NCBI GenBank assembly: GCA_964450845.1
Contig: CAYVGZ010000017.1
Location: 1 to 22,654 of the forward strand
DNA: 22,654 nucleotides
Direction: 5' to 3'
DNA from: an uncultured Candidatus Bathyarchaeia archaeon
GTDB lineage: Archaea > Thermoproteota > Bathyarchaeia > Bathyarchaeales > Bathycorpusculaceae
A program made the translations under genes and the position numbers. Shown piece after piece: positions 3,686 to 6,638 of this stretch. Numbering within the stretch: position 1 is the stretch's first letter; each line of letters starts with the position of its first letter. Under the pieces are notes generated by a model that was not told where the DNA came from, did no database searches, and saw only the letters and a program-made list of their open reading frames with translations.

Positions 3686-4861
3686 ATGTACTTAACGAGG
3701 GAGGAAGAGCGCATCTACGATGGCGAGTTTGGCTGGGCAAACCAGATATGCATGAAAATACTTGTCCGTTTGGGTGAACTTTTCAACGCAACAAGGCTAA
3801 TTCCAATAAATTCCGCACATGTCTCTGGAGTCTCATACAAAACTCTGGGCGATGCTCCATCAGATTTCCTAGAAGCACTAGCGAATGACGATGCAAGAGT
3901 GAAAGTCAAAGCAACACTAAATCCGCAAAGTTTTGACAGGGAATATCTGTGCAAAAAGTTGCCACAATATCTGCATCGAAAACAGTCAAATATTATGACA
4001 TTTTTTGAGAAAATGGGTTTTACTGAATCATTAACATGCACGCCATACTACATGGAAAACCCAAAGAGAGGTTCACACCTAGCCTGGGCTGAGTCTTCAG
4101 CCGTAATTTTCGCCAATTCTGTCGCCGGAGCATGGACGAACCGCGAAGGAGGACCAAGCGCCCTAGCAGCAGCAATAATCGGAAAAACACCAGATTATGG
4201 AATACACAAAGCTGAAAATCGTCAACCAAAAGTTTTGGTAAAACTGGAAAAGCAGTTGCAAAGCGAAGTAGAATTTGGGGCTCTAGGAATATATTTGGGC
4301 AAAATTTTAGAAGACAAAATTCCAATAATTCAAGGCTTACAAAATGCTTCAGAAGACAATTTAAAACAGTTAGGAGCTGCTCTTGCATCAACAGGCATGG
4401 TCAACATGTTCTACCGTGAAAATAGAGACATAAAATTTAGTGAAACCGAAAAACTAAGCGTAGAAACTAGAGACATAAAGCAGACAACCGAAAATTTGAC
4501 TACGACCTCAACGCAGAAACCAGACTTAGTCTTTGTCGGGTGTCCTCACTGCTCATTAAACGAAATCAAACAAGTAGCAGAGTTAATAGGCATCGGAGAG
4601 GTTAAGGAAGGAACAGAATTTTGGGTTTGCACTTCACGCCATATCAAAGAAAAAACTAGAAAATATGTGGAAAAAATAGAGAAAAGCAGAGGCCACGTAC
4701 TTACAGACACATGTGCAGTGGTCACATGGACTGAAAAACTTGGAATAAAAACGATAATGACAAACTCTGCAAAAACAGCCCACTACGCACCAACATTAAA
4801 CAAAGCAGAAACCATATTCGCACCATTGAAAGAGTGTCTAAAAACAGCCTTTAAGGGATAA
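3686..4861 (+). CDS. Aconitase X large (DUF521) subunit; probable phosphomevalonate dehydratase large subunit
   Basis: MYLTREEE, HVSGVSY, three cluster-ligand Cys motifs (TCTPY, GCPH, DTC), WAESSAV-x2-ANSV-x-GA-x-TNREGG. Confidence 0.9.
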   Translation: MYLTREEERIYDGEFGWANQICMKILVRLGELFNATRLIPINSAHVSGVSYKTLGDAPSDFLEALANDDARVKVKATLNPQSFDREYLCKKLPQYLHRKQSNIMTFFEKMGFTESLTCTPYYMENPKRGSHLAWAESSAVIFANSVAGAWTNREGGPSALAAAIIGKTPDYGIHKAENRQPKVLVKLEKQLQSEVEFGALGIYLGKILEDKIPIIQGLQNASEDNLKQLGAALASTGMVNMFYRENRDIKFSETEKLSVETRDIKQTTENLTTTSTQKPDLVFVGCPHCSLNEIKQVAELIGIGEVKEGTEFWVCTSRHIKEKTRKYVEKIEKSRGHVLTDTCAVVTWTEKLGIKTIMTNSAKTAHYAPTLNKAETIFAPLKECLKTAFKG

Positions 4862-4909
4862 GATTTATTCGAATGAAGATGTATTTTGCATGATGCTCCG
4901 GCATAAGGG

Positions 4910-5013
4910 GCTCCGGTAGAAGAAACCAAAAAGAAAGGTTCTACCGAATATAGCCCGGTCAAGTATTCCGGCCTTTCGAGCCGAAGACGCGGGTCCGAAT
5001 CCCGCCCGGAGCA
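4910..5013 (+). tRNA. tRNA-Glu (anticodon TTC) with 29-nt intron 4920-4948 at position 10/11; CCA not encoded
   Basis: After removing 4920-4948: acceptor GCTCCGG/CCGGAGC plus discriminator A; D-stem GTAT/GTAT; anticodon arm CCGGC-CTTTCGA-GCCGA; T arm GCGGG-TCCGAAT-CCCGC. The intron junctions fit bulge-helix geometry (CGGT/ACCG helix, AG|A and AA|T bulges). Confidence 0.92.
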
Positions 5014-5016
5014 CTA

Positions 5017-5040
5017 TTCTTACTCTTTTATTTATCATTT
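5017..5040 (+). terminator. T-rich archaeal terminator after tRNA-Glu
   Basis: TTCTTACTCTTTTATTTATCATTT immediately 3' of the tRNA. Confidence 0.5.
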
Positions 5041-5102: not shown

Positions 5103-6638
5103 ATGGCGGAAAGAGTGTTTTCAAATTATAAGAAACTCATGGAAAAAGTTAAGCACTTGGCAATTCTGCTGTCAGCTGAAGCCATTGTCCATTGGGATAT
5201 GGAAACAATGATGCCTCCAAAGGCAATAAGATTGCGGAGTCAGCAACTAGAATTGCTTAGCCGTATTGAACATAAGATGAGCACAGACCCAGAAATAGGA
5301 ACTTTATTGGAAGAGATTATGCGGCAATCGATGTATGATAAGCTGGATTATGTTCAGAAGAGAAACGTATACTTAATAAAGAAACAATATGATGAACAGA
5401 CGAAGCTTCCTGAAGAACTTGTTGCAGAAACTGCAAAACAACAGGCCATAACCGTAGATGTTTGGAAAAAAGCCAAGGCAGCAAAAAATTTCTCGATGTT
5501 CAAACCTGAATTGGAAAAGCTTGTTGAATTAAGGAAAAAGGCTGCAGAAATTTTGATGGAAGTTAAGGAGACCGCGACACCATACGATGCGTTAGTAGAC
5601 ATTTTTGAGCCGAAAATGACAGCCAAAACAATCACCAAAGTTTTTGACGAATTAAGAGAAGGCTTGGTTTCGCTGCTTAGGAAGTGTGAAGCCTCCAAAA
5701 AACAACCAGACATAAGCATTCTGAAAGGTGAAGTTCCAATAGACATACAACGCAAGATTTCCAAAGCACTTGCAGAATTTGTCGGATATAATGTAGAGTC
5801 GAAAGAGGCTGGTGGCAGAATCGACGAAACGGAACATCCCTTCACAACTGGTTATTATGATGATGTACGAATAACAACACACTATTATGAAGATTACTTT
5901 GCATCTTCACTGTTTTCAGTACTGCACGAAGCTGGACATGCCATCTATGAGCAAAATCTAAAAAAGGATTGGATGTATCAACCAGTAGGCTCAAGCTGTT
6001 CCTCGGGGTTTCATGAATCGCAAGCTCGGTTCGTGGAAAACATTATTGGACGTTCTCGTGAATTCTGGGCTCATTTTCTACCAAAACTGAGAGAAGTTAC
6101 AGGCAATATTCTTTCAGACGTAGACTTAGACAAGTTTGTCCATGCAGTCAACCAAGTTAAGCCTTCCAAGATTCGCGTTGAGGCAGATGAAGTTACATAT
6201 TGTCTTCATATAATTGTAAGGTTCAATATTGAGCGAGATTTATTCGCTGACAAAATAATGGTGAGGGAGCTCCCAGAAATATGGAACCAAAGTTACAAGG
6301 ACTATCTTGGTGTGCATATTGAGAACGATTCTGAAGGCGTAATGCAAGACACTCATTGGGCTAGCGGCTTATATGGCTATTTCCCAAGCTACGCATTAGG
6401 CAACATCTACAGTGGACAAATCCTCGCCACAATGGAAAAAGACTTACCAAACTGGAGAAAACAAATCGAAAAAGGAAACTTCAGTTCTGTGAAAAATTGG
6501 CTAGTCAAAAGCGTTCACAACTACGGAAACTTGTATGATCCACCAGAATTGATCAGAAACATCGCAGGAAAAGAGCTGAGCGTCAAACCATACTTAAACT
6601 ATCTTAACGGAAAATATTCGACGCTTTACGGTTTCTAA
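5103..6638 (+). CDS. Carboxypeptidase M32 (Taq/Pfu type)
   Basis: HPF, DVRITT, HEAGH (HExxH), HESQ, IRVEADE, GVMQDTHW, GYFPSYALG motifs. Confidence 0.95.
   Translation: MAERVFSNYKKLMEKVKHLAILLSAEAIVHWDMETMMPPKAIRLRSQQLELLSRIEHKMSTDPEIGTLLEEIMRQSMYDKLDYVQKRNVYLIKKQYDEQTKLPEELVAETAKQQAITVDVWKKAKAAKNFSMFKPELEKLVELRKKAAEILMEVKETATPYDALVDIFEPKMTAKTITKVFDELREGLVSLLRKCEASKKQPDISILKGEVPIDIQRKISKALAEFVGYNVESKEAGGRIDETEHPFTTGYYDDVRITTHYYEDYFASSLFSVLHEAGHAIYEQNLKKDWMYQPVGSSCSSGFHESQARFVENIIGRSREFWAHFLPKLREVTGNILSDVDLDKFVHAVNQVKPSKIRVEADEVTYCLHIIVRFNIERDLFADKIMVRELPEIWNQSYKDYLGVHIENDSEGVMQDTHWASGLYGYFPSYALGNIYSGQILATMEKDLPNWRKQIEKGNFSSVKNWLVKSVHNYGNLYDPPELIRNIAGKELSVKPYLNYLNGKYSTLYGF

Follow-up and report, generated by a model that had tools for sequence, protein, structure and literature searches.

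A leader copy of the 5′ acceptor strand as a probable folding aid for an acceptor-overlapping intron in an archaeal tRNA-Glu gene

The window analysed here (i.e., the whole stretch of 22,654 nts) comes from an archaeal bin of 1.64 Mb with 41% G+C and carries a tRNA-Glu(UUC) gene between the genes encoding aconitase-X (AcnX) and an M32 carboxypeptidase (Table 1). ARAGORN found no tRNA in the window, and the Rfam tRNA match covers positions 9-63 of the molecule only. On the strength of its sequence and of its orthologues, the gene is nonetheless real. In several genomes carrying an intronless orthologue, GCTCCGGTAG runs straight into TATAGCC, while the window and 14 other relatives have 20-35 extra bases between the two, and the borders of both exons and of the intron listed in Table 1 therefore follow. 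Removal of the intron would join exon 1 to exon 2, restoring the sequence of the intronless orthologues and with it a normal cloverleaf tRNA. The TATA box is kept in orthologues with and without the intron; the TTTATT that the original prediction had noted upstream of the gene is located at 4864-4869.

Table 1. The tRNA-Glu(UUC) gene, its neighbours and the elements discussed in the text.
Feature	Position	Strand	Remarks
AcnX (aconitase-X) gene	3686-4861		upstream neighbour of tRNA-Glu(UUC)
TATA box TTTATTCG of the tRNA-Glu gene	4864-4871	+	directly 3′ of the AcnX stop codon; putative promoter element
Candidate transcription start, T/G initiator dinucleotide	4894-4895	+	predicted from promoter geometry
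Leader decoy GCTCCGG	4895-4901	+	copy of the 5′ acceptor strand; complementary to 5006-5012
Spacer CATAAGGG	4902-4909	+	last GG (4908-4909) with G1-U3 can pair with D-loop AGCCC (4952-4956)
Exon 1, tRNA positions 1-10, GCTCCGGTAG	4910-4919	+	contiguous with exon 2 in intronless orthologues
5′ strand of helix H, C5 G6 G7 U8	4914-4917	+	common to the acceptor stem; partner ACCG at 4943-4946
Intron of 29 nts, position 10/11, HBh′ type	4920-4948	+	borders from intronless orthologues
Exon 2, tRNA positions 11-73	4949-5013	+	Rfam tRNA match 4947-5005 and orthologue alignment
Anticodon TTC	4975-4977	+	inside exon 2
3′ acceptor strand and discriminator, CCGGAGCA	5006-5013	+	proposed partner of the decoy; duplex -15.1 kcal/mol
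Discriminator A	5013	+	end of exon 2
T-rich run TTTTATTT	5026-5033	+	downstream of the gene; likely terminator, judged from the sequence
M32 carboxypeptidase gene	5103-6638		other neighbour of tRNA-Glu(UUC)

With the splice motif defined as in 10.64898/2026.10.13.758758, which cites Marck and Grosjean 2003, the sequence places the intron in the known non-canonical bulge-helix-bulge (BHB) class, as an HBh′ type. A central helix H of 4 bp pairs the exon bases CGGU (4914-4917) with the intron bases ACCG (4943-4946), and all four pairs are formed, either as Watson-Crick or as G-U pairs, in 14 of the 15 intron-bearing orthologues, the remaining one (G042) having three. The putative bulges, AG/A (4918-4920) and AA/T (4947-4949), agree with the geometry of the motif, and cuts at these sites restore the sequence of the intronless orthologue. 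The inner helix (4921-4924 with 4939-4942, AGAA/UUCU, extended by CC/GG) shows compensatory changes among orthologues. An outer helix is possible between GGGCU and AGCCC, which is not adjacent to the splice motif; the complementarity of GGGCT (4908-4912) to AGCCC (4952-4956), claimed in the original prediction, is present and yields a helix with a predicted probability of 0.82. The energy model favours a continuous 7-bp helix CGGUAGA:UCUACCG over the 3-nt 5′ bulge, the bulged register being about 3.7 kcal/mol costlier, and it places the 3′ cut site within a larger 1x5 internal loop. Three of the four pairs of H take bases of the acceptor pairs 5:68, 6:67 and 7:66, and H and the full acceptor stem are therefore mutually exclusive.

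The genome of the window encodes a putative splicing endonuclease in a single 196-aa ORF (contig C32) with N-terminal and catalytic domains, whose nearest solved relatives are the enzymes of Methanopyrus and Methanocaldococcus. Of 25 relatives, 23 have an RNase P RNA. A search of the window's 93%-complete bin for the archaeal RNase P RNA (RF00373) gave no match; both genomes of the same genus have one, and its lack in the bin is probably an assembly gap.

The sequence GCTCCGG occurs twice in the gene, in the leader (4895-4901) and as tRNA positions 1-7 (4910-4916), exactly where the original prediction had put the two copies. Likewise, the leader segment TGCTCCGG (4894-4901) is, as claimed, perfectly complementary to CCGGAGCA (5006-5013), with the restriction that the eighth pair, U4894:A5013, requires transcription to start at or before 4894. 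The heptamer is found six times on both strands of the 22.6-kb window against 1.08 expected, a count reached in none of 100 shuffles, and half of these copies are part of the tRNA-Glu gene (three). A T-arm/acceptor scan of the same genome gave 39 hits, 38 of them scorable and a few not genuine tRNA genes. Among these hits, tRNA-Glu(UUC) alone has a second upstream 7-nt complement of its own 3′ strand, and no scorable hit has a stronger leader:3′-strand duplex than this gene (-15.1 kcal/mol); the second strongest duplex of a real gene is -12.4, with a median of about -3.7 for the rest, a single value of -14.6 being a script artefact. No leader decoy is seen in any other genuine tRNA gene of the scorable set of 38, and this includes the genes for tRNA-Gln, -Ser, -Asn and -Met, which in this genome are without a 5′-proximal intron.

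Further non-canonical or multiple tRNA introns (in the D-loop, T-loop and D-arm) are present in the window's genome at C117:1712-1802, C48:6054-6125, C18:17895-17998 and C7:11318-11480, and none of these genes has a leader decoy. One of them, together with several other candidates, is missed or partly matched by Rfam. In addition, contig C1 of this genome (G000), outside the window, carries at about 168-186 kb at least 20 tRNA genes on one strand of an AT-rich stretch, with sequences that look unlike the archaeal set; a virus-like region or misbinning of the contig could account for them.

The relation between the leader copy and the intron was followed in the tRNA-Glu genes of 60 relatives, spread over 12 families of the same order, in which the 10/11 intron is found in 15 genes from 7 families. 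In all 15, the leader can form a duplex with the 3′ strand of -12.9 to -16.0 kcal/mol; 13 of these leaders contain the exact heptamer, one has GCTCTGG, with a G-U pair, and one GCTCCGA. In the 32 intronless UUC orthologues the duplex ranges from -2.3 to -12.9 kcal/mol, and only two reach -12.9 and are competent for pairing. The leaders of the intronless genes have decayed in various ways (e.g., GCTTCAG, GCCCTTC and GCCAGCA), and many of these genes share the same TATA box and the tgcatgatGC start region. No decoy was found in the 19 CUC paralogues or in genes with only the canonical 37/38 intron. In the tRNA-Glu genes, helix H, on positions 5-8, overlaps positions 1-7 and the leader complement is tied to the intron that forms it, two of the features proposed here for a class of leader decoys, with 6-8 nts complementary to the 3′ strand.

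Metagenomic sequences were scanned with a pattern that starts at G1 and is blind to the leader, which returned 102 distinct intron-bearing genes. All 102 have a decoy: GCTCCGG in 64 (five of which overlap G1), GCTCCGA in 20, GCTCTGG in 11, GCTCCGC in five, and GCTTCGG and GCTCCGT in one each. Internal substitutions in this set are solely C-to-U changes opposite a G, and otherwise the terminal base alone differs. The internal changes, all compatible with pairing, are predicted by selection for pairing with the 3′ strand and not by selection for identity with the 5′ strand. The surroundings of the decoy are variable: apart from a T at -1, the eight preceding bases differ among the genes, as do the three bases that follow and the spacer of 0-15 nts. 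A G at position -1 of the tRNA is found in 70 of 81 intron-bearing genes versus 14 of 32 intronless ones. The original prediction had raised the question of whether the copy is missing from orthologues with the same intron: all 117 distinct intron-bearing genes keep a leader complementary to the 3′ strand, whereas the leaders of intronless genes are decayed.

In a tree of ribosomal protein L3, intron-bearing genomes are scattered among intronless ones, with seven state changes on the best tree. However, only two independent contrasts fall on well-supported branches, which is too few and leaves a phylogenetic sign test without power, and statistical independence is therefore not claimed. Two intronless tRNA-Glu genes (L073 in G052 and L079 in G060) have A7:U66 in place of G7:C66, and their leaders, TGTTTCGA and TGTTTCGG, are fully complementary to the altered 3′ strand through Watson-Crick or G-U pairs. 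It is also worth noting that three intron-bearing genes (L035 in G035, L076 in G044 and L100 in G042) have, in addition to the 10/11 intron, one or two others in the D-loop and/or at 37/38, i.e., up to three introns per gene. At three other loci (L042 in G031, L049 in G012 and L071 in G046), a tRNA-Glu(UUC) gene lies in a context that elsewhere among the relatives holds tRNA-Glu(CUC), which hints at isoacceptor anticodon switching.

Leader/acceptor covariation, which the original prediction had proposed to look for, has two sides. Within the tRNA-Glu family there is no classical covariation, because all acceptor stems are identical. Decoys in other tRNAs, on the other hand, track their own acceptor strands. 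In three intron-rich relatives, from which all tRNA hits with an Rfam match starting only at position 5-9 were retrieved, four tRNA-Gln genes with an intron at 10/11 have AGCCCGG 8-13 nts upstream of the acceptor strand AGCCCGG. The leader of tRNA-Ser(UGA) (intron 8/9) contains GCCGGGA, that of tRNA-Asn (intron 8/9) GCCGCUG for the acceptor strand GCCGCCG, which is a wobble change, and that of tRNA-Met(CAU) (intron 4/5) GCGGGG. The Gln, Ser and Asn genes form a central helix of four pairs that extends into the acceptor strand, and in the folding predictions these six genes behave like tRNA-Glu. The decoys of other tRNAs are stronger independent evidence than the contrasts on the L3 tree. A search of the genome collection for the pattern of decoy plus exon 1 gave, among the matches listed, chance ones in bacterial genes and one useful locus, a Thorarchaeota (Asgard) tRNA-Glu(CUC) gene whose intron sits at the same position and which has a decoy 14 nts upstream.

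An exception is tRNA-Arg(CCU) of L407 (G039:C117:1240-1620), the 9/10 intron of which places H on acceptor bases 4-7 and which has no 7-nt copy nearby. For its leader, pairing is predicted with the D-arm (about 14 bp) and with the 3′ strand (5 bp), and 74 nts upstream at this locus, beside a second TATA-like box, there is a wobble copy, GGGTTTG. Two further loci, L404 (G044:C126:15980-16370) and L406 (G042:C22:40830-41180), have tRNA introns within the 3′ acceptor strand.

In 78 of 85 scorable intron-bearing genes, the decoy starts 30-33 nts after the first T of the TATA box. The mode is 31, which is also the distance at which GCTCCGG begins in the tRNA-Glu gene of the window. In most of the other seven genes, TTAAAATA stands at the same distance from the TATA box. 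Archaeal transcription is expected to begin about this far from the TATA box, and the spacing therefore puts the decoy where the transcript is predicted to begin. In Thermofilum, promoters are reported 30-49 nts upstream of mature tRNA 5′ ends (PMC3218864). The T at -1 and the GC at +1/+2 of the block are conserved in intron-bearing and in intronless genes and so resemble an initiator. By this geometry, the transcript most likely starts around 4894-4895 and that the RNA begins with (U)GCUCCGG.

The original prediction held that the leader sequesters the 3′ strand and so frees bases 5-8 for the splice helix, and in silico folding agrees with it: the predicted minimum-free-energy (MFE) structure of 4894-5013 is the proposed one, with an 8-bp leader:3′-strand helix, GGGCU:AGCCC and C5-U8 on ACCG. 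From base-pair probabilities, the decoy is paired with the 3′ strand at 0.97 in the gene of the window and at 0.75 or more in all 15 orthologues. With the leader, 14 of 15 orthologues have a probability of H of 0.5-1.0; without it, the values fall between 0.00 and 0.82, with a median of about 0.006. In the gene of the window, the folding results are the same for starts between 4885 and 4897, and H has a probability of 0.97 for transcripts starting anywhere up to 4896, of about 0.3-0.7 when the spacer alone is left and of 0.03-0.06 when the RNA is leaderless. The prediction that the true acceptor stem takes over after splicing fared less well: for 14 of 15 orthologues the nearest-neighbour model still favours the decoy pairing, by 1-8 kcal/mol, and no post-splicing switch was found in this model. 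The switch back must therefore need tertiary contacts, modification or an RNase P that captures a minor conformer.

The in silico predictions of conservation, position and pre-splicing fold thus held, and they support the core of the original reading of the leader as a folding helper. We consider it likely, though well short of certain, that the leader copy acts as a decoy acceptor strand enabling the splicing of an intron that overlaps the acceptor stem. Transcription from about 4894-4895 would put (U)GCUCCGG at the 5′ end of the RNA. The 10/11 intron would be cleavable only with C5-U8 on ACCG, in a 4-bp central helix that excludes the full acceptor stem. The 3′ strand, which is made last, would be captured by the free 5′ decoy in a helix of 7-8 bp and, being held there, would for that reason not displace the splice helix, while G(-2)G(-1)G1C2U3 could pair with AGCCC of the D-loop and close the motif from the outside. 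The endonuclease would then cut after G10 and after A4948, and the ligase would join the exons. Subsequently, the real 5′ strand would displace the identical decoy, and an RNase P cut between 4909 and 4910 would make the exchange irreversible.

A different function for the same helix must be weighed against the decoy reading. The leader:3′-strand pairing could be selected through the intron for another reason, such as processing order or quality control, e.g., by blocking RNase P, CCA addition or aminoacylation until splicing has occurred, or by protecting the 3′ end. This would fit the same intron-dependent conservation, and in the model the decoy conformer offers no RNase P substrate at 4909/4910 and is stable after splicing. 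However, genes with canonical, D-loop or T-loop introns would profit equally from such a device, yet they have no decoy; decoys are seen only where H overlaps the acceptor strand, and the predicted effect of the leader on H is large. We therefore regard this explanation as unlikely.

The copy could also be a neutral relic without function that shares its ancestry with the intron, e.g., through a small ancestral duplication. All tRNA-Glu cases may indeed descend from one ancestral gene, and the well-supported independent contrasts number just two. Against this, the 102 distinct sequences show an island of seven conserved bases between variable flanks and a spacer of 0-15 nts, in which every change is compatible with pairing, the copy decays in differing ways wherever the intron is absent, and the decoys of other tRNAs match their own sequences. 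This reading was already disfavoured and is very improbable. Much the same low standing is given to the conserved block being a promoter-proximal or initiator element that serves transcription and not RNA pairing: it does lie at the predicted start site, and its T at -1 and GC at +1/+2 are also kept in intronless orthologues, but positions 3-7 (TCCGG) decay in those same orthologues despite an identical TATA box and spacing, and decoys in other tRNAs have different sequences, so that this alternative, too, is most improbable.

It is extremely improbable that the upstream copy is the real mature 5′ acceptor strand and that the proximal copy is lost with a larger intervening sequence. In the genome of the window either copy would give the same mature sequence, but there is no bulge-helix-bulge motif at the 7/8 junction that would follow the upstream copy, many decoys read GCTCTGG, GCTCCGA or GCTCCGC, in contrast to a proximal copy without any deviation in the relatives (found via exon 2), and the proximal copy is the exon in intronless orthologues. 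Finally, the leader could act as a stand-alone hairpin, e.g., as a protein-binding or stability element. The UNCG-type hairpin AUGC-UCCG-GCAU that the original prediction had pointed out can be formed by the window sequence as claimed, but such a role was already disfavoured and is scarcely credible, since the hairpin is not kept in the genomes of the same genus, which, like most other orthologues, have no 3′ arm GCAT, and since the predicted ensemble pairs the decoy with the 3′ strand at a probability of 0.97.

The decoy reading can be set beside several known systems. Non-canonical HBh′ introns of archaeal tRNAs, known from the classes of Marck and Grosjean 2003, from Thermoproteales and from the D-arm of Asgard tRNAs (PMC4090602, PMC4033280, 10.64898/2026.10.13.758758), are likewise short, spliced by proteins and located in the region of the D-arm. 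They share with the present intron the 4-bp exon-intron central helix, the 3-nt bulges (putative in the present case), the inner helix and the fact that standard tRNA finders miss them. The difference is that these papers, to the extent that their text is accessible, cover the intron and its motif and do not mention an acceptor-strand copy in the leader. As far as reviews and primary papers could be searched, no description was found of such a copy as a means of settling the competition between motif and stem. Hence the intron class is known and the acceptor-strand leader decoy appears to be the new part, within the searchable literature.

In the split and permuted tRNAs of Nanoarchaeum equitans, Caldivirga and Thermofilum (PMC3218864, PMC4033280), discarded sequence outside the tRNA also pairs to give a precursor competent for splicing. 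There, however, the extra sequences pair with each other and adjoin the splice motif, and it is the splicing endonuclease that cuts them off. In contrast, the proposed decoy of tRNA-Glu pairs with the mature 3′ strand, away from the motif and in cis on one transcript, and RNase P would remove it. The likeness to split-tRNA leader/trailer helices drawn in the original prediction consequently stands for the use of a discarded helper sequence, and not for the pairing partner, the location or the mode of removal. A split-tRNA gene was itself considered and rejected: the gene is one contiguous unit, and the predicted partner of its leader is not a trailer but the mature 3′ strand, outside the splice motif.

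Attenuators and the expression platforms of riboswitches use mutually exclusive helices in which similar strands compete for one partner. They are conceptual analogues only, sharing with the decoy the principle that the choice of strand decides a downstream processing event. No ligand or ribosome is involved in the tRNA-Glu case; the proposed trigger would be the removal of the intron, followed by the irreversible cut of RNase P.

Repeats of tRNA fragments near tRNA genes are also known from att sites of the SSV/pNOB8 type (PMC3293823), in which part of the tRNA gene is repeated close to it. Such repeats exceed the tRNA-Glu repeat in length and have between them kilobases of mobile DNA with an integrase, whereas the tRNA-Glu repeat is 7 nts long, 8 nts apart, within the predicted transcript and conserved across families. 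An integration att repeat was accordingly rejected, the repeat of 7 nts with its 8-nt spacer being kept in the same arrangement in at least seven families and in 102 metagenomic variants; a target-site duplication was rejected as well.

The decoy reading bears on a conflict that catalogues of archaeal tRNA introns have left open, i.e., that the splice motif of a 5′-proximal intron and the acceptor stem claim the same bases. If it is correct, a spare strand of seven nts in the leader resolves this conflict and explains why such introns are tolerated. More tentatively, and with somewhat less confidence than doubt, we propose that leader decoys are general, near-obligatory cis-acting elements of pre-tRNA folding in Archaea, such that introns overlapping the 5′ acceptor strand would persist only with a leader copy or an equivalent leader pairing, and that maturation would proceed via a programmed strand exchange completed by RNase P. 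In that case, the sequence of the leader would determine which sites of a tRNA gene can harbour introns. Decoys would also offer a new signature for tRNA finders, the present tRNA-Glu having been missed by ARAGORN and half seen by Rfam. Furthermore, 5′ leaders could then be functional RNA rather than mere spacers, with a bearing on the evolution of interrupted tRNA genes in sediment and peat archaea and in Asgard archaea.
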